A stretch of 64,000 bases of DNA from Leptonemataceae bacterium (GTDB taxonomy: Bacteria > Spirochaetota > Leptospiria > Leptospirales > Leptonemataceae), in assembly GCA_965227295.1 (NCBI GenBank), contig OZ245742.1:3520001-3584000 (forward strand), written 5' to 3'. The position numbers and the translations under genes are program-made. A model generated the notes under the pieces. It had not been told where the DNA came from, did no database searches, and saw nothing but the letters and a program-made list of their open reading frames with translations. The stretch's first letter is position 1; the number at the start of each line of letters is the position of its first letter. Positions 2,861-58,458 of the stretch are shown in pieces.

Positions 2861-4624
2861 ATGCAATCCCACGGCGACTTTCTGCGCGATCTCGAAGAAA
2901 ACGAGAACGGCCACTTCTTGATTGATCATCAGGACGGGCGGGCGTGGTTGCGCGTGATTCCACCGGGCAAGAAGGGTCGGCCCGTCGCGTTGAAAGATGT
3001 GATGGCCCGCCTCGAACTCTTTCAACTGGAAGGCTACGACCCCCTGCACGTCGAAGAGATCGTCGAAGACGCCGACGCGGAGGCCCACGACATCTGCGCC
3101 TGGAAACTGCCGGACGCCGTGGACGCGCAGCTCACGGTGGACATCGACGAGGACGGGATGCAGGCCCATCTTACCGTCGAACCGCCCAGGCACGGCGGCC
3201 GGGCCGTGGATCGCGAGATGATCGAAACGGCGTTGCGGGAGGCCGGGGTCGTCTTCGGAGTGGACGAAGACATCGTCGCTTCCCTGGACGCGGGCACGTA
3301 CGCGGACCCGAATGCCGGCAGCCGGCGGCGGGATCCGGAGAACGACGCGCCGCGGAATTTTCCGCCGCTAAGTTCTAAGGAAAGAAAGTTACGTGTCCGC
3401 ATTGCCGCCGGTACTTCGCCGGCCCCTGGTCGATCGGGACGCATCGTGCATCGTTACGCGCTGCGCCCCCGGGCGGCTCCCGCCCGGCCTTCGGACGAAG
3501 AAGCGCGCGTGGACTTTCGCAAGCTCAACGTGATCCAGACCTGCAACGCGGGGGATCTGCTCGCCTCGGTCGAACCGCCGGCGGACGGCCGCTCCGGTCG
3601 GACTGTGACGGGGCGTGAGCTTGCTCCGCGGGCGGGGGAGAGTGCTGAACTCGTCGCGGGCAAGAATACGCGCCTGGAAGCCGCGCCGGCGGGGGAGCAG
3701 GCGCTCTACGCGGAGATGGCCGGGCAGGTGCGCATCAGCCCCGACAGCGATCGGCGCGCCCGCATCGACATCGAAGAGATCCTGGAGCTGGAGGCGGTGG
3801 ACTATTCCACGGGCCACATCGATTTTCCCGGTACCGTGCACGTGGCCGGCACCGTGCTCGACGGCTTCGAGGTCCGCGCGACCGGTGACATTCTGGTCGA
3901 GAAGACCATCGGCAACGTGCATCTGCGGGCGGGGGGCGACATCATCCTGGCGGGTGGAGCCTACTGCCGCGGCGAGGGCGCCATTGAAGCCGAGGGCGCG
4001 GTCTATGCGCGCTTCGTACAGGACGCCTTTTTGTATGCCGGCGAGGACGTGCTGATCGATGAGGCGGCCATCAACGCCAACCTGTCCGCCGGACGGGATA
4101 TTATACTGGAGGGCGGGCGCGGCGAGTTGATCGGCGGGAACAGCCTGGCCGGGCGCAGCATTCGAGCGAGTAAGATCGGCGCGCGGGCCGAGACGCCGAC
4201 GTACCTCACCGTCGGTGTTTCCCCGGACACCATGGCGAAGATCCGCGAGTTGGACCGCGAACATCTTGAGAAGCAGGCCACGTTGCGCCGGGTGGAGCGC
4301 CATCTGTTGCAGATCGACGAGGCGCGGAAACGCGGGCGGGAGCCGGACGAGGCCGGCCAGGAAGCCGAGCCGAAACTCCGGCACATCCTGGCGACCTACA
4401 CCGAAATCATTGCGAACCTGGAAGACCAGCGCCGGCTGCTTTCCGCGAACACCACGCCGAATCCGGCGGCGGGGGTGGAGGCCCGGGATATCGTCTATCC
4501 GGGCGTCGAGGTACACTTCGGTGCCGGGGTGCGCCGCTTTCGCGTCGAAGGCCGACCGGTAAACCGTTACTCCCGCTTCGTCCTGGAAGACGGCCGGATC
4601 CACCTGCGCCATTCTGATATATAA
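2861..4624 (+). CDS. FapA/DUF342 family protein
   Basis: VDYSTGHIDFPG, V.GTVLDGFEV.A.GDI.V beta-helix repeats, C-terminal coiled coil and IVYPGVEV. Confidence 0.85.
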   Translation: MQSHGDFLRDLEENENGHFLIDHQDGRAWLRVIPPGKKGRPVALKDVMARLELFQLEGYDPLHVEEIVEDADAEAHDICAWKLPDAVDAQLTVDIDEDGMQAHLTVEPPRHGGRAVDREMIETALREAGVVFGVDEDIVASLDAGTYADPNAGSRRRDPENDAPRNFPPLSSKERKLRVRIAAGTSPAPGRSGRIVHRYALRPRAAPARPSDEEARVDFRKLNVIQTCNAGDLLASVEPPADGRSGRTVTGRELAPRAGESAELVAGKNTRLEAAPAGEQALYAEMAGQVRISPDSDRRARIDIEEILELEAVDYSTGHIDFPGTVHVAGTVLDGFEVRATGDILVEKTIGNVHLRAGGDIILAGGAYCRGEGAIEAEGAVYARFVQDAFLYAGEDVLIDEAAINANLSAGRDIILEGGRGELIGGNSLAGRSIRASKIGARAETPTYLTVGVSPDTMAKIRELDREHLEKQATLRRVERHLLQIDEARKRGREPDEAGQEAEPKLRHILATYTEIIANLEDQRRLLSANTTPNPAAGVEARDIVYPGVEVHFGAGVRRFRVEGRPVNRYSRFVLEDGRIHLRHSDI

Positions 4625-4836: not shown

Positions 4837-5091
4837 GGAGTATTTTTGCTGATTTCTGTCTTGTTTTGTAGTGTTTTTTGGCTTCTCTCCGCTCATGATC
4901 TGACCGGGCCGTCGCGGACTCCGGACGCTGCTGCCCCGCGGGCTGCGCCCTCTGAACTGCGGGCCGGCGTCGGGATCATGCGTATCCTTCGTGCGGGCCT
5001 GGCGCCTGCAGCCTGTCAAAATATGATATAGTGATCCCGCCCGCGTCGGCCCTGGTACGGCCTCTGCAACTACTGATTGTCGGAGGCCGTT

Positions 5092-5469
5092 ATGAAACTC
5101 ATTCGCTACATCATCATTCTGATCCTGTCTGCCGGGCTGGCCGCTGCTTCGTTGCAGGCCCAGAACCGGCAACAAGACCTCACGAGCCTGGAGGGAACGT
5201 GGGTTACCTACGCATGGAACGGGGAATCAGCTCCGGTGCGTTACGAGCTGGAAGTCCGCCGGGATGCGCTGCGTGTCGACGTTACCCTGCGTCGCCCGGG
5301 CCAGACGGCCCGAAGCTTTGAAGGCTATCTCAATCAGGGCGTCGGGGCTCTGCATGCCGGCGGTTTCCGGATGGAGCCCATCGATGCCGGCCGGTCCATC
5401 GTAGAACTGAACGACCCGGACTTCGGTCCCCGGGAGTTGGAGCTTGTCTTCTGGAAAGAGCAGATCTGA
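5092..5469 (+). CDS. Secreted hypothetical protein
   Basis: GGAGG RBS at 5082-5086, signal peptide MKLIRYIIILILSAGLAAASLQA, followed by a terminator. Confidence 0.75.
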   Translation: MKLIRYIIILILSAGLAAASLQAQNRQQDLTSLEGTWVTYAWNGESAPVRYELEVRRDALRVDVTLRRPGQTARSFEGYLNQGVGALHAGGFRMEPIDAGRSIVELNDPDFGPRELELVFWKEQI

Positions 5470-5497: not shown

Positions 5498-5526
5498 GCC
5501 GGGGCAAACTGCCCCGGCTTTTTTTT
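5498..5526 (+). terminator. Rho-independent terminator
   Basis: GCCGGGGCA-aac-TGCCCCGGC perfect 9-bp stem followed by T8. Confidence 0.9.
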
Positions 5527-5545: not shown

Positions 5546-5572
5546 TGAGAATCGAACTGAGAATCAGTATCG
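5546..5572. promoter_or_regulatory. Fur-like operator upstream of the porin gene
   Basis: TGAGAATC repeated at 12-bp spacing; CTGAGAATCAGTATCG (5557-5572) matches 9610-9625 at 15/16; resembles the 7-1-7 Fur-family inverted repeat. Confidence 0.6.
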
Positions 5573-5674: not shown

Positions 5675-7318
5675 ATGTTTGAATTTCTATCCGGTCGCGT
5701 GTTGTGCGGCCTGCGTTCTATAAGCACTGCCGCCGTCGTCGGCGGTGTGATCGTGTTCGGACCGTCGCTCTCGGCGCAAACCGAAGAGGGTGCGTTACCC
5801 GTGGAAGAACGTCTCCAGATTCTGGAAGAAGAACTGGAGAACGTGAAATTGGAAAAGGCCACGAAGCGTTATGAAAGCGTCGGCGGCCGCGGTCCTGCGG
5901 CGTCGGAAGTCTATCATTCCACCGAGGGGCTGACCTGGGGCGGTTACGGTGAAGTGAAGTACCGCGACTATCAGTCCAGCTTTCGTACCGACCAGGCGGA
6001 CGTACATCGTTTCATTCTCTACGCCGGTTATCGGTTTAACGATTGGATCGTACTCAACACCGAGATCGAGTACGAACATGCGGGTTTCGTGGAAGAAACC
6101 GTCGTGACCGACGTCGACTTCACGGACAACTCCACGTCCACCAGTACCGTCAATGAAGGCGAGGTCTTTGTGGAGTTTGCGTATCTCGACTTCGAGTTCT
6201 CGAAGGCTTTCCAGATGCAACTCGGTCTGAACCTGTTGCCCGTCGGTGTAACGAACTATCGCCACGAACCCACGACCTTCCTGGGCGTGGAACGGCCGCG
6301 CACCGAGTCGGACATTATCCCGTCCACCTGGCGCGAAATCGGCGCGATCTTTCACGGTGAGATCGGCGAGCTGTTCCTGTGGCGCGCCGGTGTCGTCAAC
6401 GGCCCGCGGGGCGTAAAGTTCAGTGAATCGTCCTGGATTCGCGGCGGTCGCACAAAGGGTTCGCTGTCGCGCGCACAGGACTTTGCTTACGTGGCAAGCC
6501 TCGACTTCGTCGGCGTGAACGGCATGACCGCCGGCGGTTCCTACTATCGCGGTGACTCCGGCCAGGGCGAAATCTCGAAGCTCGACTGGACGAATCGTTT
6601 TTCGAATCCTCTGGATTCCCTGAACGATCAGACGGGAATCGTGGACGCGCTGAATGAGATCGACGACAACCGCCTTGAGAACGCGCGCATTCGTGTTCAC
6701 ATTGCCGAGGGTCACCTCGAGTACAACGCCGGCCCGGTGATGTTTCGCGCTCTATATGCTCAGGGCTGGATGAACGAAGACGATGCCCGCGCCGTGAACG
6801 CCGCCACCGGCAAGAACATCGGTCAACGCGTCTCCGGCGGCTACGGTGAGCTGGGTTACAACATTCTGTCGTTCTTCGAAACCGCGCACAAACTGTATCC
6901 TTTCGTACGTTACGAGCGTTTGAATACGCAAGAAGAGACCGTACGTCGCTACGCCGGCGGAGAAGAGGACATCAACGACTTCGTCTGCGGCGTCGTGCTA
7001 CAGGGAACGTGCAAGGTCAGTGAAAGCGACGCGGCCACCCTGGCGGGTTACTCCACCATCAGCAATCGTCAGCTCGGGATCATCGAGAACTCGGACGCGC
7101 TGAAAGAAGCCTACGGCGTTCAGGGGACGGCCAATCGCGTGAACGATCGCCGCATTCTGACACTGGGCCTCGCGTACTACCCGCATCCTAACGTGGTCCT
7201 CAAGGGCGAGTACGAGCGCTGGGAATCAAAGACGGACTTCAGCGACGATATCGAAGGCCGCAACCCGTCAAATAACAAGATCGATCGGATCTCGTTTGCG
7301 GTGGGATTTATCTTTTAG
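5675..7318 (+). CDS. Outer-membrane beta-barrel porin (OprO/OprP-like superfamily) with N-terminal coiled coil
   Basis: Signal peptide, short coiled coil, WGGYGEV, RFILYAGYRFND..LNTEIEYEH, amphipathic strands, C-terminal aromatic BAM signature AVGFIF. Confidence 0.8.
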   Translation: MFEFLSGRVLCGLRSISTAAVVGGVIVFGPSLSAQTEEGALPVEERLQILEEELENVKLEKATKRYESVGGRGPAASEVYHSTEGLTWGGYGEVKYRDYQSSFRTDQADVHRFILYAGYRFNDWIVLNTEIEYEHAGFVEETVVTDVDFTDNSTSTSTVNEGEVFVEFAYLDFEFSKAFQMQLGLNLLPVGVTNYRHEPTTFLGVERPRTESDIIPSTWREIGAIFHGEIGELFLWRAGVVNGPRGVKFSESSWIRGGRTKGSLSRAQDFAYVASLDFVGVNGMTAGGSYYRGDSGQGEISKLDWTNRFSNPLDSLNDQTGIVDALNEIDDNRLENARIRVHIAEGHLEYNAGPVMFRALYAQGWMNEDDARAVNAATGKNIGQRVSGGYGELGYNILSFFETAHKLYPFVRYERLNTQEETVRRYAGGEEDINDFVCGVVLQGTCKVSESDAATLAGYSTISNRQLGIIENSDALKEAYGVQGTANRVNDRRILTLGLAYYPHPNVVLKGEYERWESKTDFSDDIEGRNPSNNKIDRISFAVGFIF

Positions 7319-7397
7319 GTTCGTTGTGCGGTGGTACGGGCGTCGTGTCCGTGCCGCCGCACGATCGGGGTCCGGGGGGCGTACGCGTAAGCCTTCG

Positions 7398-7991
7398 TCA
7401 CAGCCCCAGCTCCGTTTCGATAAATCGCCGGAAGTTTGCCAGGTTGCCGTCCGTCGCGAAGTAGTTCAGCGTACGTTGGGCTCCGATTATCTTAACATCC
7501 AGGCGTGAAGCCTTAAGCAACTCGCGCAGCACCGGCTCCGGGACGTGGTGCCAGTAGGCCGTCTCCGTAACCAGGCGTTCGCCGGCCTCGTCGCTGTAAG
7601 GCTTGCGTAGTTTTTCGCTGCCGTTCTGAGAATGCAGACGGAACTGCCGGCCGTCGATGGTGAGGATGAGGCTTTCGCCGGCTTTGATCTCGGCGGCTTC
7701 CAACTCGTGGATGCGCGCGTAGAACGAAATGACGGTTTCTTCGCTCTGTCGACCGCTTGCATCCGTGGAAAAGAGGATTGCCTTTTGTAGATTCAACTGT
7801 GCGCTGTAGACACCGAGTTCTCCCGGAAGTTCGAAGGAGCCGCCGAGATAGTTGTCCGTCATGCGCACGACGCGTTCGTTGTCTCCGGCGTAATTTTGCG
7901 TGGCATAGCGACTGAAGTAACTGCGGCACTGGAGGGCGCTGAGGCCGAGCAAACAGACAATGCTGAAGAGCCGGAGGGTGTTCCGTTTCAT
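7398..7991 (-). CDS. Hypothetical lipoprotein
   Basis: Start re-set to MKRNTLRLFSIVCLLGLSALQC (lipobox-like); ATGA overlap with upstream gene stop. Confidence 0.7.
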   Translation of the reverse strand: MKRNTLRLFSIVCLLGLSALQCRSYFSRYATQNYAGDNERVVRMTDNYLGGSFELPGELGVYSAQLNLQKAILFSTDASGRQSEETVISFYARIHELEAAEIKAGESLILTIDGRQFRLHSQNGSEKLRKPYSDEAGERLVTETAYWHHVPEPVLRELLKASRLDVKIIGAQRTLNYFATDGNLANFRRFIETELGL

Positions 7992-8506
7992 GACTTCCTC
8001 GCGAGAGAGTACCCCAGCAGCAGGGCGATGAAGGCAAACGAAAGGCCTTCGAAGAGTAGAAAGATCAGCGTGCGGAACAGCGGCCCGGCATACGGGATCG
8101 ACCAGACCACGAAACCGGAGAAGATTTCCAGACCCGCCGTCACGTAATACGCCGCGCACAGATACTCGAGCCAGGCGGCGGGCCGGCCGGACAGGGAACG
8201 CACGAGATGTGTGAGCAGAAAAACCGTGAGACCGTAGGCTGCAAGGTGGCCTACGGCTATCTTGAGCAGACCTTCGAAGGTGCGCGCCTGCAGAAAACGA
8301 TCCGGACGATCGGGATACGTTTCGAGCATTCGTTCCGAACCCAGGTAATACTCCAGGGTGGACGCGGGATGCAGGCCGATCTTCCAGGCGTAGAGTGCGA
8401 AGCCCGTCCCCAGTTGCAACACAACGAAGATCATAAAGAACATCAACAGCGGCCGGAAGTAGCGATGGTCGCCGGCCGGCGCCGCGGTGCTTGCATCGCG
8501 GTTCAC
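7988..8506 (-). CDS. 4-TM membrane protein with intramembrane histidines
   Basis: Four hydrophobic segments, GLHPA loop, GHL and THL in TM2; GTGA overlap with upstream gene. Confidence 0.75.
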   Translation of the reverse strand: MNRDASTAAPAGDHRYFRPLLMFFMIFVVLQLGTGFALYAWKIGLHPASTLEYYLGSERMLETYPDRPDRFLQARTFEGLLKIAVGHLAAYGLTVFLLTHLVRSLSGRPAAWLEYLCAAYYVTAGLEIFSGFVVWSIPYAGPLFRTLIFLLFEGLSFAFIALLLGYSLARKS

Positions 8507-9000
8507 GACGCACCGCCTTTCGGTGACTCGTAGAGTCGTAGCAGAATCAACGCGATGATCGTCAAACAGGTCGCATAAAACATGAGACCGGAGAGATATG
8601 CCGGCCAGGCGGCCGCGGCGGCGAAGAACGTGAGGGCGCGGGCCAGCGTAAAGAACAGCGCCGAAATCGAGAGCACGTAGATCAGCGCGAGTTTCGCACG
8701 TGACGGCAGGCGAATCTGATACAATACGGCGCCGAGAAAAAGATTCATGAGGCCGAAGAGAAACAGGTCGATGTGCAGGTCTTCGAGAATCGCGACGAAA
8801 CCCGGCGGCGGCGTACGGATCGAAAAGACCGCCCCCGGCTCGTGCAGATTTTGCGCAAAGGCCGCCGGGGTGAGGCCGGACGACTGCGTTTCACGTAATA
8901 GATGCGCCACCGTAAAGAGCGCCAGGAAAATCAGGGCGCAGGTGAGGATGGCCCGGGGACCGCGATCGCTGCGCAGAGAACCTGTAATCAGAAATTTCAA
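8503..9000 (-). CDS. 4-TM membrane protein, probable paralogue of 7988-8506
   Basis: Four hydrophobic segments, GLTPA loop, EDLHID motif entering TM2. Confidence 0.72.
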   Translation of the reverse strand: MKFLITGSLRSDRGPRAILTCALIFLALFTVAHLLRETQSSGLTPAAFAQNLHEPGAVFSIRTPPPGFVAILEDLHIDLFLFGLMNLFLGAVLYQIRLPSRAKLALIYVLSISALFFTLARALTFFAAAAAWPAYLSGLMFYATCLTIIALILLRLYESPKGGAS

Positions 9001-9028
9001 CGGTGCCTTAGTTTGATCTCAGCAAATG

Positions 9029-9568
9029 TTAACGGTCGGCGTAGTGTGCTTTGTACAGAAAGAGCACTTTGCGCACAGTGTTGCTGACCGCCCGCGTGGT
9101 CATGGTGGCGCCGGTAATGGCCGGCAGGTCCTTGCCGGGCAGCAGGGCGTGTTCCGTTGCGCGCTTGCCGCTGAACAGGGCCAGCCAACGATCCGGGGCC
9201 AGGTAATCTTCCGGTTCAAAGAAGGACACGACCCGCACGTTGCGAATGCTGCCGTCGGCGTTCAATGCAATGAAGAGCGTCTGATCCTTCGTGCGCACGC
9301 GATGGGTGTCGAAGGTGGCGTAGCCGGCTACCATGCCGCCGGTGCCGCGCGCCACGTAGAACGTATGAAAGCGACCGACGCGATCGAGGCCCGGTTGCTC
9401 CTCAATGAAGCGCTGCTGAGCTTTTGTAAGATACTTCGCCTGGCGCTCGATCTTTGCCTCGGGGAACTCCGCGTTCAGGGCCTGCTCCGGCAGCGTATAG
9501 ACGTGGGCCGCGAGACCCAGCGCCCCCGCACTCGCGAACAGAAAAACTGTGACGAGAATTCCCCGCAT
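9029..9568 (-). CDS. Exported FMN-binding domain protein (flavinylation motif)
   Basis: Signal peptide; C-terminal DLPAITGATMTTRAV contains the [S/T]GAT ApbE flavinylation motif; F.EP.DY motif. Confidence 0.85.
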   Translation of the reverse strand: MRGILVTVFLFASAGALGLAAHVYTLPEQALNAEFPEAKIERQAKYLTKAQQRFIEEQPGLDRVGRFHTFYVARGTGGMVAGYATFDTHRVRTKDQTLFIALNADGSIRNVRVVSFFEPEDYLAPDRWLALFSGKRATEHALLPGKDLPAITGATMTTRAVSNTVRKVLFLYKAHYADR

Positions 9569-9609
9569 AATACGTCAGTCTGAGTGAGCCCGATCGGCCG
9601 TCAATGATT

Positions 9610-9625
9610 CTGAGAATCAGTCTCG
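9610..9625. promoter_or_regulatory. Fur-like operator in the divergent FMN-binding/glutaredoxin intergenic region
   Basis: CTGAGAATCAGTCTCG, near-palindrome TGAGAnT-n-AnTCTC; 15/16 identical to 5557-5572. Confidence 0.6.
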
Positions 9626-9686
9626 CGGTTCGTAGCGGTCCCGGAAAACCGTTGCCCGCCAGTCCGCCGCGCCGGAAAACGCGAGG

Positions 9687-10040
9687 ATGAGCCGCCGACT
9701 GACCCTGTCCCTGACCGTCTGCCTGACCGCCGTCGTTTTGCTCGCCGGCGCCTGCCGTTCCGGGACGCAACGCAACTATTCCAACGACAATCAGATCGAA
9801 GTCTACGGCCGGCACTCCTGCCCGATCTGCCGGTCGTTCACCGCGCGCCTGCAATCTGAAAATCTCGCCTACGAATTTTATGACGTCGACGAAAAGCCCG
9901 AGCGCGCCCGGGAGATGTGGGACCTGATTGAAACGTCCTACCCGGGGCAGAAGTCCGTCGGCCTGCCGGTGGTTCGCGTAAACGGCAATGTGTTGATCCA
10001 GCCGAACTTTGATTCGGAGTTCGCGCAATTTTTGAAGTAG
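9687..10040 (+). CDS. Glutaredoxin-like lipoprotein
   Basis: Lipobox LAGAC; VYGRHSCPIC active site; GLPVVRVNG cis-Pro motif. Confidence 0.8.
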   Translation: MSRRLTLSLTVCLTAVVLLAGACRSGTQRNYSNDNQIEVYGRHSCPICRSFTARLQSENLAYEFYDVDEKPERAREMWDLIETSYPGQKSVGLPVVRVNGNVLIQPNFDSEFAQFLK

Positions 10041-10049: not shown

Positions 10050-10457
10050 TTACGTCACGATCATCCAGGCCAGGACGGCGAAACAACCGAACTGTAAAAT
10101 CAAAAACGACGCCCGAATCGTGACGGCGATGGACGTGCCCGAGCTGATGTGCGCGACGGACTGCGCGAGCCGCGCGCCCAGATACACGAGTGCCACCGTT
10201 TCGAAGGCGGCATCCACGGCCCCGACGAACTGGCCGATCAGCACCGCGGCGCCCATGATCGGCAGGTTTTCCGCACTGTTCACGTGCGCACGGTTGATGC
10301 GCCAGTACAGATCACCGCCGTGCTGCTGGCCGGAGGGAAACTCGTTCGCCGCCTTTTTGCCGGCGAAGACGAGCATGGTCCGCCACATCACCACGGTGAA
10401 TCCCAACAGTGCGGTCCACGCCCCGAAGCCGAGTAAAGCAAGAAGTGCCTGGTTCAT
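10050..10457 (-). CDS. MAPEG family membrane protein
   Basis: RINRAHVNSAENL and RLAQSVAH motifs, four TM helices. Confidence 0.85.
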   Translation of the reverse strand: MNQALLALLGFGAWTALLGFTVVMWRTMLVFAGKKAANEFPSGQQHGGDLYWRINRAHVNSAENLPIMGAAVLIGQFVGAVDAAFETVALVYLGARLAQSVAHISSGTSIAVTIRASFLILQFGCFAVLAWMIVT

Positions 10458-10499: not shown

Positions 10500-11678
10500 T
10501 TACCGAATGACCTCGCCGATGTTTCGTTTTACGTCCTCGCCGTAGAACAACGACTGCGACGCCGCCGGGATAAGTCCGCCGGACGGGAGAATCGTGCCGA
10601 TGACCACGGCGTAGCCGCGGCCGCGATCGAGAAACGGATAGAAGCCGTTCGCACCGAAGCTGTGATTGGAAGAATCCACGCTGCACAGCGCCGTAAAACA
10701 AACGCGCCAGTTACCCAGGCCGTAGTGCCAGTCGAAGCCGAACTGCGCGAACTGTGAGTACAGGATCTGCGTATTGGATTCGTACTGATCGGCGAGCATT
10801 GTGTCGATGGATGATTGCGAGAGGATCGTGTTGCCGTTGTAGGTGCCGCCGGACATCAGCATGATCATAAAACGCATGTACTCGTTCGAAGTGAGCACCA
10901 GGCCGTAGGCGCCGGCCAGGCTGCCGTCCCCGCTCAACGTCGAGACGTTCGCGTACCAGCGCGCCTGAGTTCCGTCGAACGCAAGTTTGTTGGAGTCGCC
11001 CAGGTATTTGTTGAACAGCGCCGTCCAACCGAGTCCCGTGCGAATCTCGGCCATGCGCTGGGCGACGGCCATGTGATTCGAATTGTAGACGAAGTACGCT
11101 CCGGGGCTGTCACCGGCGGTGGACGTGCGGATGGATTCGATGCACGCGTCTTTATCGGCATCGCTGGCGTTGTCCGGCAGACTGGAGATGCATTCATCGC
11201 TGCCGGACAGGCGACTCGCGGCACGCAGTCCCGAGGTGAACGCAAGCAACTGCCGCATGGTAATGGTTCCTTGAGTACCGGTCCAGCCCAGGACGTCGCC
11301 GGTGGTCGTATCGAGGGTGAGCGCCGGGGAAACGGAGGCGTCCTCGGTGATGGCCATGATCACGGCGGCGGTCATCCACTTGGAAGCGGAGAAGATCGGT
11401 TGGTACGTGGACTTCGTGAGGCTTGCGTCTTTCCAGCGCTCGTACACGAGCGTGCCCGAGGAGTTGATGATCTGGATGTTCGCTCCGGACGGGGCGCGAT
11501 CGGCGAAACGATCGAAGCAGCGGTCGAGGCCGGTGCAGAGATAAAAGGCCGGACCGAAGAGGGCGTCCTGCCAGAGCTCCGCGTCTTCTTTCGCGTCGGA
11601 GTCGTTCCCGAAGTGAGCATTGGTGCAGCCCGCAAGAAACGTAAAGATCGTAAGAACAAACGTTAGAGGTCTTTTCAT
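10500..11678 (-). CDS. Serine hydrolase, beta-lactamase/PBP-like fold, lipoprotein
   Basis: Lipobox LAGC; SASK (SxxK), ITMRQLLAFTSG, FVYNS, HSFGANG. Confidence 0.85.
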   Translation of the reverse strand: MKRPLTFVLTIFTFLAGCTNAHFGNDSDAKEDAELWQDALFGPAFYLCTGLDRCFDRFADRAPSGANIQIINSSGTLVYERWKDASLTKSTYQPIFSASKWMTAAVIMAITEDASVSPALTLDTTTGDVLGWTGTQGTITMRQLLAFTSGLRAASRLSGSDECISSLPDNASDADKDACIESIRTSTAGDSPGAYFVYNSNHMAVAQRMAEIRTGLGWTALFNKYLGDSNKLAFDGTQARWYANVSTLSGDGSLAGAYGLVLTSNEYMRFMIMLMSGGTYNGNTILSQSSIDTMLADQYESNTQILYSQFAQFGFDWHYGLGNWRVCFTALCSVDSSNHSFGANGFYPFLDRGRGYAVVIGTILPSGGLIPAASQSLFYGEDVKRNIGEVIR

Positions 11679-11807: not shown

Positions 11808-12248
11808 TTATGTGTCGGGTTCGTACGGAATGTTTTCGAGGATGCGTTCGAGGTACTCAATGAGCTGGCGCCGATCGGCGTCGCTGAAGTCGCGGTAGGT
11901 TTCTTTGAGCAGCTTGCGGGAGATGGAAAACATGAGCGACTTCACGCGCCTGGCCTTCGGTGTCGCCTGAATGTAGGTGACGCGACTGTCGCTTTTATCG
12001 CGGCTGCGGGTGACGTAGCCGCCGGATTCCAGCTTGTTGATGAGAGAAGTGAGCGTGGACTTGTCGCGGTCGATCAACTGCGCGAGCTCACGCATGGTCG
12101 CTTTTTTACGCGACGCCAGCACGAAGAGGATGTCCCCGTGAGACGGAGACAGCTCTTCGATTTTCGCGCGCTTGAATTCACGCAGGAGATGGCGTTGGAA
12201 ACGATCCCGTATCCGGGCGATCAGCACGAGGAGGGACTCGGGTTTCAT
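11808..12248 (-). CDS. MarR family transcriptional regulator
   Basis: ELAQLIDRDKSTLTSLINKLESGGYVTR..D..DSR winged helix. Confidence 0.9.
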   Translation of the reverse strand: MKPESLLVLIARIRDRFQRHLLREFKRAKIEELSPSHGDILFVLASRKKATMRELAQLIDRDKSTLTSLINKLESGGYVTRSRDKSDSRVTYIQATPKARRVKSLMFSISRKLLKETYRDFSDADRRQLIEYLERILENIPYEPDT

Positions 12249-12276
12249 AGAGGTTCCCCGCGGCACGACGCACGCC

Positions 12277-15248: not shown

Positions 15249-16118
15249 CTACAGCGCGTCGAAAATTCTCTGAAGGCCCTCCCGGAAATTCGGGCTGCTC
15301 AGTTTTTCCAGGTGCCCTTCCAGTTCCGCCACATCATCAAAGACCAATCGCAGTGTTAAGCGCGTCTGTTCCAGGTCGTCCGGCAGATCGAGCTGCATGT
15401 TCTTGAGCAGGCCCAGGTCCCGTCGCAGTTGCAGTAGTTCTTTGCGCAGCCTTTCGATCTCCGGCGATCGCAGGCGACGGACCAGGTCCCGAACCTCGTG
15501 CGCCGGAAACGAGCGCGACTTCGGGCGCTGGTCCCAGTGTTCGGACATGCGCCGGGCTTCAGCCAGGGCGCGGGAACGCTGCTCTGTATCGAGGTCGTAG
15601 TAGTCGAGGACAATGTCCCGGATAAAGTTGCGATTCAACGATCTCCGGGTAAACAGATGCAACCAGGCTTTGCGTTCTTCCGGGGCCAGGCGATTCCAGA
15701 GGCGCAGCACGTTTAGCGGAGCATCGAATTTGCGTGCCAGTTCGCGGGAGAGTTCATCCAGGTCGGCGTGTTCTTTAAACTCGGCCAGGGTTTTGAAATT
15801 CGGTCGGCGACCGGTGAAGGCCTCGAACACGATTTCGACGGGGTAGTCGGGATGATCGTCTAAATACGCGGCCAGGTCCACGCGATGAGGCGGGGCGAAG
15901 CGCAAAAGTTCGCGCCAGGCCGGCAGGTTCTGTAATTCGTCTTGAGTGAAAACGCCGAGGGGGCTCCGGTCCGACGTTTCGGCCAGGGGCGTCAGGAGCT
16001 GCAGGTTCGAACCGTCCTGCACGGCGTACGCGATGCGACGGTCCGGCGCCGCCCAGGGCAGGAGGCGTTCCCGCAGAAGGCTGTCATACTGTGCGCTGTC
16101 GATGAGTTGCCAGTGCAT
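15249..16118 (-). CDS. Hypothetical protein, helical
   Basis: 289-aa ORF filling the gap between spoT and the transglycosylase gene; function not recognised. Confidence 0.65.
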   Translation of the reverse strand: MHWQLIDSAQYDSLLRERLLPWAAPDRRIAYAVQDGSNLQLLTPLAETSDRSPLGVFTQDELQNLPAWRELLRFAPPHRVDLAAYLDDHPDYPVEIVFEAFTGRRPNFKTLAEFKEHADLDELSRELARKFDAPLNVLRLWNRLAPEERKAWLHLFTRRSLNRNFIRDIVLDYYDLDTEQRSRALAEARRMSEHWDQRPKSRSFPAHEVRDLVRRLRSPEIERLRKELLQLRRDLGLLKNMQLDLPDDLEQTRLTLRLVFDDVAELEGHLEKLSSPNFREGLQRIFDAL

Positions 16119-16168
16119 CGCACGAATCGAAACCCGCGATGCGTACGTGCGTCAAGTGCCAAAAATGA

Positions 16169-16882
16169 TTGCCGTGCTTGCCCGGAGCGTCACGCTTCCC
16201 CGTGCTCCCGCGATATCTCATGTGGTCCGCGTACTTCGCCGTCGTGCCCGTGCTTTGTATGATCGTGCTGTTCTTCCAGAACGCGCCGCGGGCCGGGCAA
16301 CTCATCGTGCACGGCGATCTTTCCGTGGAATACCATACGGCCGATGCCGGCGTCGTGTGGAAGAGCGGCGTGCCCGAATCCGCCGTGCGCGTCGACGACG
16401 TGCCGAAACACTTCACGGCCATGTTGTTGTATCAGGAAGATCAGGCCTTTTTTGATCATCACGGCTACAGCGCGCGGGAGATCTACATCGTGTTGCGGGA
16501 TTATGCGTTGCGCGGCGATCGGTTGCGCGGTGCGTCGACCATCACTCAGCAACTCGCCCGGGCGTTGTTCTTGAGCCAGGAACGTTCGTTGCGCCGTAAA
16601 CTGCTGGAGTTTCGCGCGGCGATCTTGCTGGAACATCGTCTCACTAAGTTGCAGATTCTGGAACTTTATGTGAATCATGTGTACTGGGGCGCGCGCCTCA
16701 CCGGACTCGCCGCCGCGGCGCGGCATTACTTCGGCAAGGCTCCGGCGCAATTGTCCCGGGAAGAGGCGGCGCTGCTCGTGGCGATTCTCCCGGAGCCGAA
16801 TGCCTGTCCGCGATTGCGGCGTTGCGACGACGAGGGCGTGGTGCGGCGGGCGCAGCGTTTGCTCAAGGCTCCGCCGCCCTAA
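16169..16882 (+). CDS. Monofunctional peptidoglycan transglycosylase (GT51, MtgA-like)
   Basis: EDQAFFDHHG, GASTITQQLAR, RKLLE, ILELYVN motifs; N-terminal TM; start uncertain. Confidence 0.88.
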   Translation: MPCLPGASRFPVLPRYLMWSAYFAVVPVLCMIVLFFQNAPRAGQLIVHGDLSVEYHTADAGVVWKSGVPESAVRVDDVPKHFTAMLLYQEDQAFFDHHGYSAREIYIVLRDYALRGDRLRGASTITQQLARALFLSQERSLRRKLLEFRAAILLEHRLTKLQILELYVNHVYWGARLTGLAAAARHYFGKAPAQLSREEAALLVAILPEPNACPRLRRCDDEGVVRRAQRLLKAPPP

Positions 16883-17805
16883 CCCAGGGGAGTTCCGGAA
16901 CCGAACACCACCAGAGACACAAGCACGACCACAATCGAGATCGGCGCGAGGATGACATCGGCGGCGACCGTCAGAGGCAGCAAAGGCAACAGGGCGTACT
17001 GATTGCGATCTTTGCTCCGGCCGGTCGGTTCGTTGAAGACGGCGTGTTGGCGAAACTCCGCCGTCTGGTCGGGTCGCTGCAATTTGGCCCACTGCACGGA
17101 TTTCAGTTCAAAGAGCAGGCCCGCGCCGAAGTCGTAGTACTGCACTGGAACGGGAGTCCAGTCTTCGATGGGCGGCATGGATTCCGGTATGTCCTTTGAT
17201 CCGGCTCCAAAGAACGTCACGTCTTCACCGGGAGCGGGGGCCGGCTTCGACGGAATATGACTCCAGTAAATTTCCGGAGGCTCGTCCTCGGTCAAAAGTG
17301 CAAGATAGCTGAAGCCCGGGGAGACGCGTGCCGCGAAGATCGGCTTACCCGTGGAGAAACGTATTCTGTTTATTCCAAAGCAGCGGCCCGCTGCATCGGG
17401 AACGCCTGCGAAATCGATTACGGTGTTGCGCACGGGAAACGGCAGCTCGTCACAGCGAAAGCTGCGTATGTCCGTGACGACGGACGGCGCGGCAGCAACG
17501 TCGCACGGGCCGAGTTTCAGCGGTTGCAGCGTGAAGTAATCCGTGTCCTTCTGACGAAAGGCTTCTTGAAGGTGTGCCTGCCCACACAACGGACCCCGGG
17601 CCCCCCAGGTACTCTCTCCCTGAAACGAAAAATAGAGCAACTCGCCGGCACCACTCTGGATATCGAGCAGTCGCGTCGCCTGCCAGTATTCGTTGTCCGG
17701 TTTCCGGAAGGCCTCATCGAGGAGCTTGCCGGTGAAGCAACTACTCAGGAGCGGATGAGCGGCGGTGAGCAGAAAGACCAGGATCGTGCGCCGGGGACAG
17801 TTCAT
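16879..17805 (-). CDS. Hypothetical lipoprotein with C-terminal hydrophobic tail
   Basis: LLSSC lipobox-like; C-terminal LLPLTVAADVILAP hydrophobic segment. Confidence 0.65.
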   Translation of the reverse strand: MNCPRRTILVFLLTAAHPLLSSCFTGKLLDEAFRKPDNEYWQATRLLDIQSGAGELLYFSFQGESTWGARGPLCGQAHLQEAFRQKDTDYFTLQPLKLGPCDVAAAPSVVTDIRSFRCDELPFPVRNTVIDFAGVPDAAGRCFGINRIRFSTGKPIFAARVSPGFSYLALLTEDEPPEIYWSHIPSKPAPAPGEDVTFFGAGSKDIPESMPPIEDWTPVPVQYYDFGAGLLFELKSVQWAKLQRPDQTAEFRQHAVFNEPTGRSKDRNQYALLPLLPLTVAADVILAPISIVVVLVSLVVFGSGTPLG

Positions 17806-24028: not shown

Positions 24029-24268
24029 TTAAAAGCCGTAGTGGCCTGGTGCCGGCAGGGGATAAACTTTGTTGCCGCGGGGATCGTACTCGGGAAACTC
24101 AGGAATCACAGCACCGTCGTCGATGAAGCGACGGACCGTGCGCAGGGCCTCGGAACGCGTATCGGCCAGGGAGCCGACCTGAAGCGACTCGCAGTGGGCC
24201 GCCCAGTAGCCGTCTTCGACGGCGATAAATTCCACCACGTGCACCTTAAGAATATCGGCGGAACACAA
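24029..24268 (-). CDS. Small HicB-like protein
   Basis: EDGYWAAHCESLQVGSLADTRSEAL resembles the HicB N-terminal domain pattern; start uncertain (GTG 24244 possible). Confidence 0.5.
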   Translation of the reverse strand: MCSADILKVHVVEFIAVEDGYWAAHCESLQVGSLADTRSEALRTVRRFIDDGAVIPEFPEYDPRGNKVYPLPAPGHYGF

Positions 24269-24310
24269 CTGGCATCATCGAAGAAAAATAACACGGATCT
24301 GGCCGGGCCC

Positions 24311-24685
24311 ATGCAATACCTCGGCCTCGGTTTCGAATTTCTCGGCGCGTTTTTGATGTGTGCCGGCGCGGGCTATCTCGTGGATCGTTATCTGACCGAG
24401 AGCGGGCGGCCGGGACTCTTTCTCATCGCCGGGGTCTTTGTGGGCTTCGGCGCGGGGTTGTGGCATTTGATCCGGCGGACCAGCGCCATCGGCGAGTGGG
24501 AGAAGCTGCACCTCGCCGAAAAGAAACAGGCCCGGGAAGCCGACGAAGATGTCGCCACAAAGGCCGACCGCATCACGCGGGAAATCGATGCGGTGAGTGA
24601 GCGCATCGGACGGGTGCTCGAAGATCACGAACGTCGCGCGCGCCGCCGCTCCGAAAATGCTGCGACGCCCGACAACGATGACTGA
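24311..24685 (+). CDS. AtpZ/AtpI family protein
   Basis: YLGLGFEF...GYLVDRY..PGLF...GVFVGF two-TM pattern at the head of the atp operon. Confidence 0.8.
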   Translation: MQYLGLGFEFLGAFLMCAGAGYLVDRYLTESGRPGLFLIAGVFVGFGAGLWHLIRRTSAIGEWEKLHLAEKKQAREADEDVATKADRITREIDAVSERIGRVLEDHERRARRRSENAATPDNDD

Positions 24686-25085
24686 AGCCCCGGATCATAC
24701 CGAACCGTCGCAGTGGTGGCTGGATGTCGTGCTGATTGCCGCGTTGCCCGTCGCGGTCGCGCTCGGTTATGCCGTGTATGACGCTTCCGTAACTCTCGTG
24801 CAGCCGATGTTTCGGTACGGGATTCATTTCTATGCGTCTTTATTCTCCTACGGACCGCACTGGATGCAGCGCTATCACCGCCGCCGGCGACCGGAGCACG
24901 GCCTCAAGTGGGTACTCCTGGGCAGTACGCTGCGTCTGTTTGCACTGGTGATACTGTTGGTCTGGCTCGTCGTCACGGCACGGCCGGTGGCGGCGGGTGT
25001 GGTCCTGTTTGTTATAACGATCGGAACCTTTTTGTGTTTTCAGGTTGTCACAGAGGCCCGGCGCAAATACCGTGGCCGCGCGTAG
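24678..25085 (+). CDS. ATP synthase protein I-like membrane protein
   Basis: Four hydrophobic segments, LGSTLRLF motif, located between atpZ-like gene and atpB. Confidence 0.6.
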   Translation: MTEAPDHTEPSQWWLDVVLIAALPVAVALGYAVYDASVTLVQPMFRYGIHFYASLFSYGPHWMQRYHRRRRPEHGLKWVLLGSTLRLFALVILLVWLVVTARPVAAGVVLFVITIGTFLCFQVVTEARRKYRGRA

Positions 25086-25091
25086 AGCGCT

Positions 25092-26324
25092 ATGACCCCG
25101 GAAAAAACCGACCAAAATCGCATTCTAAACTCCCGGCCGGCCTTCCGTTCCTTTCGGTTGCGATTCTTCCTCGCCTTGCTTCCTGTCTTTGTGGCCTCTT
25201 ATATTATGGGCGCGGTCTCGCTGGCGGCCGAAGAGGACGATCACGGCGATCACCCTGCTGTCGAAAGTCACACCGAAGAGCACGGCGGCACGCACGACGA
25301 ACACGCCGGTGATCACGGCAAAAGCAAAGGGTTCGACTTCGTAGCGAAGCTTGAGCACCACCTCAACGACTCGGTTATTTTCGAGTGGAATATCGGCGGC
25401 ACGAAAGTGCGTCCGGGCGAAGAGGGCTACAAAACGCCGGCGTTCACCCGGCGCTATACCTTCAAGGATGCCGAAGGCCTCTATCGTTACGACGGCGGCC
25501 TGCCCATGCACATCACGCGCCGTGTTATGATGATGATCATCGTCGGCACGTTGCTTACCGTCATTTTGATTCTCATCGCCCGCCGCATCGCGAAAAACCC
25601 GTATCGGGTCAACGGCCGCGCGGCGAGCATGATCGAAGCCGCGGTCCTGTGGATTCGCAAAGACCTCGTCGAAGAAGGCATGCACTCTCACGGCAAGGGC
25701 TTCGAACATCTGATCCTTTCGCTATTCTTCTTTATCTTCGCGCTGAACCTGGCCGGGCTGTTTCCGCCCATCGGCGAAGGCGTGAACAAGATCTACGAGG
25801 CCGTGACGCACACGCATCACGACAACCATTCGGCGGGTAGCACCGAGGCTCCACTCATTGCAGTGTGGCCTGGTATCACCGCCACCGGCGACATCGGCGT
25901 AACCCTGCCGCTCGCGCTTATGACGACGCTGCTGATGTGGATCACGGGCTTTCGTTATCAGGGCTTTAAGTTTCTGTGGCACTCGGTGCCCAATGGCGTG
26001 CCTGTCGCTTTGTATCCCATCATGTGGCCGCTGGAATTCATCATCAGCCCCGTCGCCAAAGGTTTCGCTCTCACCATTCGTCTGCTCGCGAACATGACCG
26101 GCGGTCACGTCATCCTGCTGGCCCTGGTTGGTTTCATCTTCCAGGCGAAGGCTCTGTGGTTCGGCGGCCCCATCGGTATCGTCGGCGGTGCCGGTATTAC
26201 GCTGGCCTCCGTGGCAGGCTCGGTTGCCATTTACTTTCTCGAAATTCTGGTCGCCTTTTTACAGGCGTTTATCTTTGCCATGCTGTCGTCGCTGTTTATC
26301 GGCAGTGTGATGCACCGTCACTGA
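25092..26324 (+). CDS. atpB: F0F1 ATP synthase subunit a
   Basis: FALTIRLLANMTGGH, LEILVAFLQAFIF; long N-terminal extension. Confidence 0.95.
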   Translation: MTPEKTDQNRILNSRPAFRSFRLRFFLALLPVFVASYIMGAVSLAAEEDDHGDHPAVESHTEEHGGTHDEHAGDHGKSKGFDFVAKLEHHLNDSVIFEWNIGGTKVRPGEEGYKTPAFTRRYTFKDAEGLYRYDGGLPMHITRRVMMMIIVGTLLTVILILIARRIAKNPYRVNGRAASMIEAAVLWIRKDLVEEGMHSHGKGFEHLILSLFFFIFALNLAGLFPPIGEGVNKIYEAVTHTHHDNHSAGSTEAPLIAVWPGITATGDIGVTLPLALMTTLLMWITGFRYQGFKFLWHSVPNGVPVALYPIMWPLEFIISPVAKGFALTIRLLANMTGGHVILLALVGFIFQAKALWFGGPIGIVGGAGITLASVAGSVAIYFLEILVAFLQAFIFAMLSSLFIGSVMHRH

Positions 26325-26396
26325 GGGACGGAGTTACAACTGATCTCAAATATTACGTTTCTTGCTATTGTTAACGGATATACAACGGAGGATTGA

Positions 26397-26678
26397 ATGA
26401 TCGCTTTAGCATTCGTAGGTATCGGCGTAGGCGCCGGTCTGGTTATCATCGGCGCTGCCATGGGCATCGGCCGTATCGGCGGTTCCGCAGTTGAGGGCAT
26501 GAGCCGTCAGCCGGAAGCAGCCGGTCCGATTCAGACCGCCATGATTATTACGGCGGCCCTGATCGAGGGTGCGGCTCTGTTCGCCCTGGTGATCATCCTG
26601 CTGTCCGGTCTGAACTTCACCCCCGATCTGATCGAGAAGTTCGCACCGCAACCGGCAGCGACCGAAGCAGCCGAGTAA
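26397..26678 (+). CDS. atpE: F0F1 ATP synthase subunit c
   Basis: GIGRIG, RQPE loop, ALIEG proton-binding Glu; GGAGG RBS. Confidence 0.96.
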   Translation: MIALAFVGIGVGAGLVIIGAAMGIGRIGGSAVEGMSRQPEAAGPIQTAMIITAALIEGAALFALVIILLSGLNFTPDLIEKFAPQPAATEAAE

Positions 26679-26851
26679 GGTTTTTTACCTCCGTGTTCGG
26701 GTTCTGCGCGGTTGCGCAGCGCCCGGAACGGATGGTGTGTTACGCTTTCCCGTACGTTCCGCGTGCGGCCTGTCTTTCTCCGGAGTTCCGATCGCATCGG
26801 TAGGTCGGCGTAAAGGCAGCACGAGAGCATAGACTTCAGGAGATTTTTGAT

Positions 26852-27379
26852 ATGATGCTTGAGTTTCTGGCAGAAGGCGGTGGAATTGCGCTGCTCGACG
26901 TGAATCCCGGCCTGGTCATCTGGACCTTTATCATCTTTGGCCTGGTGGTGTTTATTCTGCGCAAGTTCGCGTGGAACCCCATCGCGAATGCGCTGGATTC
27001 CCGGGCGCAGAAGATTCACGAGGACATCGACCGCGCGGAAAAGCTGCGTAAAGATGCCGAGGCCAGGCTGAACGAGTATCTCGATAAGCTGAACGGTCTG
27101 CGAGAAGAAGGACAGGAGATTGTCGCCGAGGCTCGCAAAGACGCGGACGCTCTGAAGAGTGAAATCCTCGGCGCCGCGAAGAAAGAGGCCGAAGAGCTCA
27201 AGAACCGCGCTCTCCGGGAAGTCAACCTGGCGCGGGAGCACGCCCTCGAAGACATCTCCCGGCAGGTCACGGAACTCTCGATCGCGGTGGCCGCGCAGAT
27301 TCTCGAACGGGATCTGAAGGCCGAGGATCATCAGAAGATCATCAACGAAACCGTACAGAAGATGCGGAGCATGAACTGA
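26852..27379 (+). CDS. atpF: F0F1 ATP synthase subunit b
   Basis: PGLVIWT..F..LRKFAW.PI..ALDSR, coiled coil. Confidence 0.95.
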   Translation: MMLEFLAEGGGIALLDVNPGLVIWTFIIFGLVVFILRKFAWNPIANALDSRAQKIHEDIDRAEKLRKDAEARLNEYLDKLNGLREEGQEIVAEARKDADALKSEILGAAKKEAEELKNRALREVNLAREHALEDISRQVTELSIAVAAQILERDLKAEDHQKIINETVQKMRSMN

Positions 27380-27389
27380 GTTATCCCTT

Positions 27390-27962
27390 ATGCTGTTGAA
27401 TGCAAAGATAGCAACGGTCTACGCGGAAGCGCTCCTTGAGCTGGCCATGGACGCCGGCTCCCTGGAGGACGTGGAGCAGGAACTGAACGGGGTTACCCGG
27501 GTCGTGGCCGGGGACGAGTCCGTGTGGACATTCTTTCGTTCTCCGGTGGTGGACATCGAAGCGAAGGAAAAGGTCCTCGAAACGTCGCTGAAGCCCGCGC
27601 TCTCGAAGACGCTCTACAATTTCATGGGGGTCCTCGTGCGGCGCCGTCGCATGCAGGAGCTGCCCGCCATCGCGGACATCTTTCACAAGCTCGCGAACGA
27701 AAAACTCGGTCGGCGCGAGGTATTCGTATATTCCGCAACGGCACTTACGGACGAACAGGAAAAGGCCCTCTACGAAGCCGTGCAGAGCTACTTCCACCTC
27801 AAGGTTGTTATGGAAACCCAGGTTCGTGAGGATCTCATCGGCGGCCTGGTCATTCGTTCCAACGACACCGTATTCGACACCAGCATTCGCAGCCGGCTCC
27901 GGCGCATCAAACAACGACTGAAAGATCGCAAGATCACGGGCGAGGCATACTATGAAAATTAA
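27390..27962 (+). CDS. atpH: F0F1 ATP synthase subunit delta
   Basis: [15 protein letters not shown]...DTSIR. Confidence 0.93.
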
Positions 27963-29487: not shown

Positions 29488-29527
29488 TCCGGCGTAACAG
29501 CGAATCAAGGGAAGTTAGCAGGAACTT

Positions 29528-30436: not shown

Positions 30437-30457
30437 GCGCAGACGAGCGCAACTTAA

Positions 30458-31900
<1,443 letters not shown>

Positions 31901-31902
31901 GC

Positions 31903-58262: not shown

Positions 58263-58458
58263 GGTTGATCTTCGGCTTAATTCGAAGAAAGGATGACTCC
58301 GAGGACCGAGGTACCGAGATGAAGAAGGGAGAACGGTCGTAGCCTGACCGCGTTCCGCTTACAAACGCACCATCAAAAATACTCGAAATCTTCCCTCGTG
58401 ATCTCGGTCCTCGGATTAAAATCTTTTAGCTTTGTGCGGAAAAACCGATGTTATTCCT

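Follow-up and report, generated by a model that had tools for sequence, protein, structure and literature searches.

A porin, an RnfG-like flavoprotein and paired Aq_1264_TM proteins as a putative envelope-spanning reductive iron-uptake module in Leptospirales and other bacteria

We analysed a stretch of 64,000 nucleotides from a Leptonemataceae bacterium (Spirochaetota, Leptospirales; GenBank assembly GCA_965227295.1, contig OZ245742.1, positions 3,520,001 to 3,584,000 of the forward strand), called here the window, whose G+C content is about 60%. Six genes at positions 5675 to 10040 of the window encode a porin, a flavin mononucleotide (FMN)-binding protein, two small transmembrane (TM) proteins named here TM-A and TM-B, an exported protein of 197 amino acids (aa) and a glutaredoxin-like protein. 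We examine them as a candidate module for reductive iron uptake. The open reading frames (ORFs) and candidate regulatory sites, in window coordinates, are the following.

5546-5565, plus strand: candidate operator half-sites, two copies of TGAGAATC, upstream of the porin gene
5675-7318, plus strand: porin ORF, 547 aa, with an N-terminal signal-like sequence
7398-7991, minus strand: exported/lipoprotein-like protein, 197 aa, last gene of the operon
7988-8506, minus strand: TM-A, 172 aa, four TM helices, PF27139 (Aq_1264_TM)
8503-9000, minus strand: TM-B, 165 aa, four TM helices, paralogue of TM-A
9029-9568, minus strand: FMN_bind protein, 179 aa, with a PF04205 match
9605-9619: candidate Fur-family operator, the 7-1-7 palindrome TGATTCTCAGAATCA, between the FMN and glutaredoxin-like genes
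9687-10040, plus strand: glutaredoxin-fold protein, 117 aa, divergent from the operon, with a lipoprotein-type signal and a CPIC motif

The ORF map, the translations and the sequence define a closely packed minus-strand operon in the order FMN protein, TM-B, TM-A, 197-aa protein, towards which the porin gene is convergent. The last three genes overlap by 4 bp, through a GTGA and an ATGA, the ATG of the 197-aa gene overlapping the TM-A stop codon. These overlaps had been described in an initial account of the window made from its letters (the sequence-only reading), together with a porin, an FMN protein with an ITGAT motif, two four-helix His-containing proteins and a divergent CPIC protein; ORFs, translations and Pfam recovered all of them. 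Pfam scans covered 72 larger ORFs of the window and 148 ORFs of 75-149 aa. No ApbE, PepSY, NqrB/RnfD, FeoB, FTR1 or Fur family was detected in these 64 kb, which for apbE, NqrB/RnfD and PepSY confirms what had been stated. A strong intrinsic-terminator-like hairpin (9-bp stem, T8 tail) lies at 5498-5518, upstream of the porin gene, which is therefore a separate transcription unit. Upstream of this terminator, positions 5077-5469 encode an exported protein of 130 aa. No homologue of it was found in any of the loci fetched from other genomes; for this reason, and because the terminator separates it from the porin gene, it was rejected as a member of the system.

The FMN protein matches PF04205 with 30 bits for a cut-off of 22. 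It carries the motif LPAITGATMT, in which Thr155 (codon 9106-9104) is the predicted flavin acceptor. An alignment of 22 homologues shows no variation at G153 and A154 and very little at T155. Searched against the PDB, the family profile aligned over its full length with RnfG (9eri_G, E 3.8e-13), with the AITG[AS]T acceptor sites in register. The N-terminus, MRGILVTVFLFASAGALGLAA, is hydrophobic as judged by eye; it corresponds in the alignment to RnfG's N-terminal helix and is predicted to be a signal or an anchor. The likeness to RnfG/NqrC is thus end to end. In contrast, the match to TIGR01947 (rnfG) is weak, its 20.6 bits being far below the NCBIfam RnfG cut-off of 102, no RnfD/NqrB, RnfA/E, RnfB or RnfC gene is present in the window, and the partner membrane proteins are unrelated to those of Rnf and Nqr. 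We consider the window protein to be RnfG-like and periplasmic; its acceptor threonine for ApbE is intact and would be flavinylated.

To follow the genes across bacteria, species-representative genomes were scanned with the FMN-protein alignment as query, and the best 80 of 181 relatives were kept (loci L001-L080). Their ORFs were searched with profiles built in this analysis and synteny was counted from the FMN side. The loci come from Leptospirales and other spirochaetes, Ignavibacteria, Bacteroidota, Nitrospinota, Nitrospirota, Planctomycetota, Acidobacteriota, Aquificota, Binatia, Elusimicrobia, Myxococcota and other deltaproteobacteria, and an FMN ORF could be called in 78 of them. The usual order is porin, FMN protein, TM protein and ApbE on one strand, and the core recurs in about ten phyla. 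Where at least 1.5 kb of sequence precedes the FMN gene (66 loci), a porin homologue is found in 55; where at least 700 bp follow it (75 loci), the next gene in every case encodes a small His-bearing TM protein. ApbE is encoded in 37/80 loci (27/50 with ample flanks), and PF02424 was confirmed in the seven cases tested. The families that the sequence-only reading had grouped, and whose joint occurrence with apbE it had proposed to check, therefore do recur together. L003 and L005 have the exact six-gene layout of the window. Since this layout recurs in these two loci and the core in about 80 loci of many phyla, the arrangement is far beyond chance.

All 79 related FMN ORFs have an acceptor Thr or Ser, within [ST]G[AS][ST] in 57 and within [VAIM]G[ASV]T in 22. 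Carriers of the second form include L014-L018, L023, L026, L029, L035, L037, L041, L042 and L046, and most of them have apbE in the locus. The first position of the published [S/T]GA[S/T] motif may therefore be dispensable. The precomputed PF04205 label is absent from 9/22 relatives of the FMN protein, and the L041 copy has no PF04205 match. The many members of this family that fall under the Pfam FMN_bind threshold may explain why Pfam-based surveys did not pick out the system.

TM-A bears the precomputed Pfam label PF27139 (Aq_1264_TM), and the Atlas clusters nearest to TM-B are 97-100% PF27139 (score 0.94). Local scans found no family for either protein in Pfam at E≤0.1 or in NCBIfam at E≤1. 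BLASTP saw no similarity between the two; their paralogy emerges in profile comparison only, where hhalign aligned the two family profiles over their whole length (99.9%, E 1.6e-31). On this profile evidence TM-A and TM-B are old paralogues of one family, which corrects the previous description of them as simply two TM proteins. The family is of modest size: an exhaustive profile search returned 229 representatives at E≤1e-3, the best 150 of which were used for the motif and fusion counts that follow.

TM helix 2 of TM-A contains H87 (codon 8248-8246) and H100 (8209-8207), 13 residues apart and both present in 19/19 A-class sequences; the corresponding H-x12-H motif occurs in 148 of the 150 representatives listed. 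TM-A also has a conserved loop, YYxGSE...PDRF, predicted to be periplasmic. TM-B is without both of these His, having D78 and A91 at their positions, and instead carries E73 (codon 8784-8782) and H76 (8775-8773), found in 66/66 sequences. The single-gene form present in most phyla has all three His in one protein, for example LEvTHfH...LLTHL. After duplication, B would have retained E73 and H76, and A the other two His. Conserved basic residues, K42 and R145, are located near the predicted periplasmic His of the TM proteins.

Natural fusions give further insight into this family. B-A fusions, which follow the gene order, make up 18 of the 150 representatives listed, and in their alignment precisely these three His persist, one in the B half (H72) and two in the A half (H228 and H241). 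The AlphaFold2 (AF2) model of a B-A fusion is a confident one with eight TM helices (pLDDT 90, pTM 0.86). Because the two proteins are fused in this order in other bacteria, TM-A and TM-B are expected to act as one unit, which lends comparative support to the membrane heterodimer suggested from the sequence alone. Four representatives among the 150 (P0100, P0111, P0129 and P0148) are TM-ApbE fusions, in which a basic linker and an extra hydrophobic helix precede a C-terminal ApbE domain; these argue, again by comparison, for the proposed link to flavinylation. The linker and extra helix imply an N-in/C-in topology for the four-helix domain. Loop 1-2, H76 of TM-B and H87 of TM-A would then be oriented toward the periplasm and H100 of TM-A toward the cytoplasm.

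The position after the FMN gene is not always occupied by this family. In the 75 loci with sufficient downstream sequence, it holds an Aq_1264_TM protein in 65, a PepSY_TM-like protein in five and a third type in five. Counted over all 80 loci, the TM architecture is a single gene in 51, a B+A pair in 16 (Leptospirales-like and Aquificota loci), PepSY-like in 5, the third type in 5 and cut by a contig end in 3. The PepSY_TM-like proteins belong to five Nitrospinota loci; the one in L020 scores 33.6 bits with PF03929 for a cut-off of 28.8. The third family was observed at L019:7199-7639, L039:9483-9968, L053:9558-9983, L066:9329-9766 and within L032, in Planctomycetota and Thermoanaerobaculia loci, directly after the FMN gene. 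Its members, of 141-161 aa, have no Pfam match and four invariant His, two on each of two helices. Compared with Aq_1264_TM by hhalign, the family shows no homology (probability 5%). It looks like another uncharacterised cytochrome-like module.

The link to iron comes from the neighbours of the cluster. Unlabelled neighbours within 5 kb were clustered and the cluster representatives annotated. FeoB was found in 13 of the 80 loci, Fur in 11, FTR1 in 7 and an Fe-S assembly protein in 8, with at least one of FeoB, Fur and FTR1 in 27/80. Beyond these four, no neighbour was common to several phyla. We also searched for palindromes of Fur-box type (TGAnnnn-n-nnnnTCA, 7-1-7, at most one mismatch). 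They occur at the cluster start in 20/67 loci, with a density of 0.83 per kb at cluster starts versus 0.052 per kb elsewhere in the same loci, a 16-fold difference, and the canonical TGATAATnATTATCA is present at the cluster starts of L024, L029 and L080. Both the neighbours and these palindromes provide comparative support for reductive iron assimilation, which the sequence-only reading had put forward as an example, with iron as the presumed substrate.

In the window, TGATTCTCAGAATCA is a perfect 7-1-7 palindrome that precedes the FMN start codon by about 37-51 nt, within a divergent region of 118 bp. A near-identical palindrome, TGATTCTCAAAATCA, is found at -52 in L005. Upstream of the porin gene, the half-site TGAGAATC of the window palindrome occurs twice in direct orientation, at 5546 and 5558, 12 bp apart and about 110-130 nt before the porin start. 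This half-site has six matches in the 64 kb, for about two expected, and three of the six are in the porin and FMN-operon promoters. We regard the 9605-9619 palindrome and the porin-upstream half-sites as candidate Fur-family operator sites.

For the window porin, no Pfam family reaches its cut-off, and among relatives only sub-threshold matches to Porin_O_P, BBP2 and OMP_b-brl appear. It belongs to a large family of its own: over 1037 clusters were found at E≤1e-5, every one unnamed ('hypothetical'). The AF2 model (pLDDT 79, pTM 0.75) consists of an N-terminal helix and 16 strand elements. The helix, a coiled coil at about residues 43-62, lies beyond the signal sequence; such an N-terminal coiled-coil helix is a feature of DcaP. 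Foldseek returned 331 PDB matches at E≤1e-3, headed by OmpK36, OmpC, OmpF and DcaP (E 4.7e-13, probability 1.00), with TM-scores of 0.63-0.72 on the target. The barrel fold is thus that of the trimeric porins OmpC/OmpF/OmpK36 and of the coiled-coil porin DcaP (Foldseek E about 1e-12). Unlike general porins, however, the window family is much more conserved, has invariant Glu and His in the wall and the long loop, and is tied to a redox module. Identity across phyla is 33-42% in an alignment of 53 sequences, unusually high for an outer-membrane protein, and the same alignment shows E130, E132, E134, H135, E167, H197, E198, E211, W219, R259 and H347 to be invariant. E130, E132 and E134 alternate on a single strand, and H197, E198 and E211 are in a long loop after strand 5, which we infer to correspond to the constriction loop of general porins.

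Such a conserved porin might serve in another way, as part of a conduit carrying electrons with the flavoprotein across the outer membrane to insoluble Fe(III) outside the cell or to other acceptors, whether to respire or to solubilise minerals, in a flavin analogue of porin-cytochrome complexes. The strength of its conservation and its many invariant residues would suit this role, as would the fact that in almost every locus outside L001-L013 its gene directly precedes the FMN gene, and flavinylated outer-membrane barrels (DUF3570) are described in the available text of PMC8238504. Against this, a barrel of general-porin size, with 16 strand elements, is judged too narrow for a domain of 150 residues, there is a single flavin site per protein, and the Fur, FeoB and FTR1 neighbours point to assimilation. 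A flavinylation motif of DUF3570 type in the porin itself was considered and rejected, [S/T]GA[S/T] occurring anywhere in only 9 of 66 porins. We give the conduit no more than a slim chance, and retain the porin as an entry route for iron to be assimilated.

The remaining two proteins and one part of the porin are limited to few genomes. The 197-aa protein has a hydrophobic N-terminus, no Pfam or NCBIfam match and only unnamed clusters as Atlas neighbours; its homologues are confined to L003 and L005 among the 80 loci. That an exported-type gene ends the operon holds as previously reported; its designation as a lipoprotein derives from a lipobox-like LSALQC read by eye. The 117-aa protein, with its CPIC active site, matches PF00462 (Glutaredoxin, E 5e-9, 36.7 bits for a cut-off of 22.9), and it stays below the cut-off of all NCBIfam glutaredoxin-like models. 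Glutaredoxin-like homologues adjoin the cluster only in L003 and L005. The Cys pair that had been noticed in a long insertion of the porin is indeed there, as CGVVLQGTC at residues 438-446 (C438/C446) within an insertion of 58 residues (427-484), and is lineage-specific, present only in the window, L003 and L005. The Cys-pair insertion, the CPIC glutaredoxin-like protein and the 197-aa protein are found together in these three genomes and are absent from the rest of the 80 loci, which hints at a thiol/disulfide add-on specific to the lineage.

Other genes of the window were recorded in passing. Beside the cluster are genes for a MAPEG-family membrane protein (10050-10457), a beta-lactamase-fold lipoprotein-like protein (10500-11678) and a MarR regulator (11808-12266); at other loci none of the three is conserved next to the cluster. 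Positions 24041-32310 contain an F-type ATP synthase operon, which includes an AtpI-like 'ATPase_gene1' protein. The ORF for the a subunit of this synthase is unusually large, 410 aa, the Pfam domain starting only at residue 146. There are two paralogues of the flagellar assembly protein FapA, at 2861-4624 (587 aa) and 44431-46398 (655 aa), as well as CheR (48090-48935) and a flagellar rod protein (58432-59325). An ORF of 1150 aa at 19320-22772 matches no Pfam family at E≤1e-5, and further large ORFs without Pfam match are found, for example, at 15249-17805 and 32497-34539.

We then compared the cluster with known flavinylated systems. The published membrane classes of such systems are five: NapH-like, MsrQ-like, PepSY-like, DsbD and NQR/RNF-like (Meheust et al. 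2021, eLife, PMC8238504, in its available text). DUF4405 was added as a flavinylation-linked membrane class in 2024; FezC, a DUF4405 protein, is a small TM protein of flavinylation clusters modelled to bind heme b by dimerising (Huang et al. 2024, mSystems, PMC11334425). By family tests, Aq_1264_TM would belong to none of the five classes as published in that text, nor to DUF4405. This bears out, at the level of Pfam, the suggestion made from the sequence that the membrane electron donor may be of a different type, its source of electrons being a matter for the model below.

In other flavinylated systems, the membrane module proposed to reduce iron is a PepSY-like protein (PMC8238504). Those systems, as there described, resemble the present one in combining an ApbE-dependent extracytosolic flavoprotein with a small His-bearing membrane protein, and in their association with Fur and ferrous-iron transporters; moreover, the five Nitrospinota loci pair the porin and the FMN protein with a PepSY_TM-like protein. 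They differ in three respects. The membrane part here is PF27139, with no match to PF03929 or PF16357; the flavoprotein is FMN_bind/RnfG-like, whereas theirs is DUF2271; and the outer-membrane partner is a dedicated porin, whereas theirs is a TonB-dependent receptor. The words 'FeoB' and 'porin' are absent from the main text of PMC8238504. DUF4405/FezC proteins likewise are small TM proteins in apbE clusters, with membrane His as their most conserved residues and a link to iron redox, according to the text available, and the heme sites modelled by dimerisation of FezC can be likened to the TM-A/TM-B pair. In contrast to FezC, the window proteins have no PF14358 match, 4+4 helices instead of six and three His per heterodimer instead of four, and their heme is a prediction.

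Literature searches found no description of a porin/FMN/Aq_1264_TM cluster, the supplements of Meheust et al., which could list such clusters, being outside the search; 'aq_1264' was not found in the literature searched. The available text of a paper on the Riemerella Fur regulon lists an ApbE gene in a table only (PMC5609570). Flavinylation-based extracytosolic iron reduction is known; new here are a membrane module class absent from the published flavinylation surveys and a dedicated porin partner.

Taken together, we interpret the region as the Leptospirales version of a widespread, undescribed envelope-spanning module for reductive iron uptake, and assign this interpretation a probability of roughly 0.55. 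Iron would enter through the Glu/His-lined porin. In the inner membrane, the three invariant His of the TM-A/TM-B heterodimer would hold a redox cofactor, most likely heme b. Through the heterodimer, electrons taken from the quinol pool or the cytoplasm would reach the covalently attached FMN, and the flavoprotein, flavinylated by an ApbE encoded elsewhere, would reduce the Fe(III) that came through the porin. Fe(II) would then be imported by a transporter encoded elsewhere in the genome. A Fur-family repressor may control expression through the 9605-9619 palindrome and the porin-upstream half-sites. The glutaredoxin-like protein, the 197-aa protein and the Cys-pair loop of the porin would be lineage-specific additions. 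We favour a cytochrome role for the TM pair because of the analogy with PepSY-like proteins and FezC/DUF4405, because the slot of the TM gene is taken by other His-bearing modules in ten loci, and because of the H-x12-H spacing and the basic residues near the periplasmic His. A spacing of 13 residues between two His of one helix is that of di-heme cytochromes b.

A number of observations weigh against this interpretation. The first concern the membrane pair. Neither Pfam nor NCBIfam assigns the TM proteins to a cytochrome family, and the fused TM model had no Foldseek match in the PDB at E≤0.001. The top sub-threshold matches were heme A synthase (E 0.19) and cytochrome b of bc1, from which no conclusion was drawn. 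The heterodimer has three conserved His, when four are expected for two bis-His hemes, and its invariant Glu-x-x-His in a TM helix also suits a metal permease. For these reasons, namely the three His, the invariant Glu and the lack of a structural match, a permease role stays alive: the Aq_1264_TM proteins would be an inner-membrane permease for Fe(II) or another metal, with Glu and His along the ion path, and the flavoprotein would receive its electrons from another membrane complex. Glu/His motifs in TM helices are typical of metal transporters. The motif in question is E73-x-x-H76 in TM helix 2 of TM-B and E-x-x-H-x-H...H in the single-gene form, and, with FeoB, Fur or FTR1 near only 27/80 loci, many clusters are without an obvious adjoining Fe(II) importer. 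A permease would, however, leave the flavoprotein without an electron source in an otherwise self-contained cluster. The 13-residue interval between H87 and H100 is the one of di-heme cytochromes b, and K42 and R145 are placed as expected for heme propionates. In addition, in ten loci the TM slot is taken by a PepSY_TM-like or a four-His protein, which are proposed electron-transfer modules and not permeases (PMC8238504, in the text available). We consider the permease unlikely and keep the cytochrome-like pair.

Further adverse points concern the composition of the cluster in the closest relatives of the window. The 13 Leptospirales-like loci L001-L013 all lack apbE within about 9 kb; as the window has none either, flavinylation has to depend on a gene outside the region examined. 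The 11 loci devoid of porin all belong to these 13, so that 11/13 Leptospirales-like loci have no porin within 9 kb. L001 (8938-10024) and L002 (8923-10062) have the FMN protein and TM-B only, and within about 9 kb of them no TM-A, porin, glutaredoxin-like or 197-aa protein was found; a porin homologue, P0184, is probably on the same contig as the L002 locus. The TM-B/TM-A pair is therefore not always encoded together. One may ask whether the porin, the glutaredoxin-like gene and the operon are merely chance neighbours, functionally unrelated. The window porin is convergent and not co-transcribed with the operon, a porin is missing from most of the closest loci, and the glutaredoxin-like and 197-aa genes recur in only two other loci. 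On the other hand, the porin, FMN and TM genes are adjacent in about ten phyla, fusions exist, and the two promoters of the window share a motif. A fortuitous assembly is thus contradicted for these core genes and, for the ensemble, hardly credible; for the glutaredoxin-like and 197-aa genes taken on their own it is possible.

Finally, the case for iron is indirect in the window, where no feoB, FTR1 or fur was found; it comes from other phyla and from a palindrome that departs from the classical Fur box. The consensus of this box is TGATAAT-n-ATTATCA, and the window palindrome agrees with it at 5/7 positions per arm. These same features, the deviation from the classical box and the lack of an iron transporter in the window, would fit a periplasmic system for redox homeostasis or detoxification, acting on oxidants, thiols or another metal, in which the Fur-like sites would be bound by a relative of PerR/Zur type. 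The CPIC glutaredoxin-like neighbour agrees with such a function, as do a Redoxin/AhpC-TSA gene about 2.5 kb away in six Leptospirales-like loci and the MAPEG and MarR genes that adjoin the window cluster. Yet the thiol-redox genes are limited to one lineage, the neighbours that recur across phyla are FeoB, Fur, FTR1 and the Fe-S assembly protein, and several clusters have canonical Fur boxes. We hold a redox-homeostasis system to be quite unlikely, and maintain iron assimilation as the probable function.

A broader proposal can be made, tentatively and at somewhat less than even odds. Aq_1264_TM may represent a sixth class of membrane electron input for ApbE-flavinylated periplasmic proteins, a minimal 4+4-helix cytochrome-like dimer repeatedly split into B and A or fused to ApbE. 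With the metal-selective Glu/His porin, it would constitute a route of reductive iron uptake independent of siderophores and TonB, spanning both membranes and shared by ten or more phyla, from Aquificota to Leptospirales.

Roughly half of all bacteria are believed to use flavinylated extracytosolic electron transfer for iron assimilation, and many flavinylation clusters are without a recognised membrane electron donor; the TM proteins described here supply a candidate. Gene fusion connects Aq_1264_TM, a Pfam domain of unknown function, with ApbE, and genomic context connects it with iron; the redox module is further linked to a highly conserved porin family that counts over 1000 unnamed members. 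Three or four genes with small parts make up this compact system, which suggests a path by which iron may cross the outer membrane in Gram-negative bacteria without obvious siderophore receptors.

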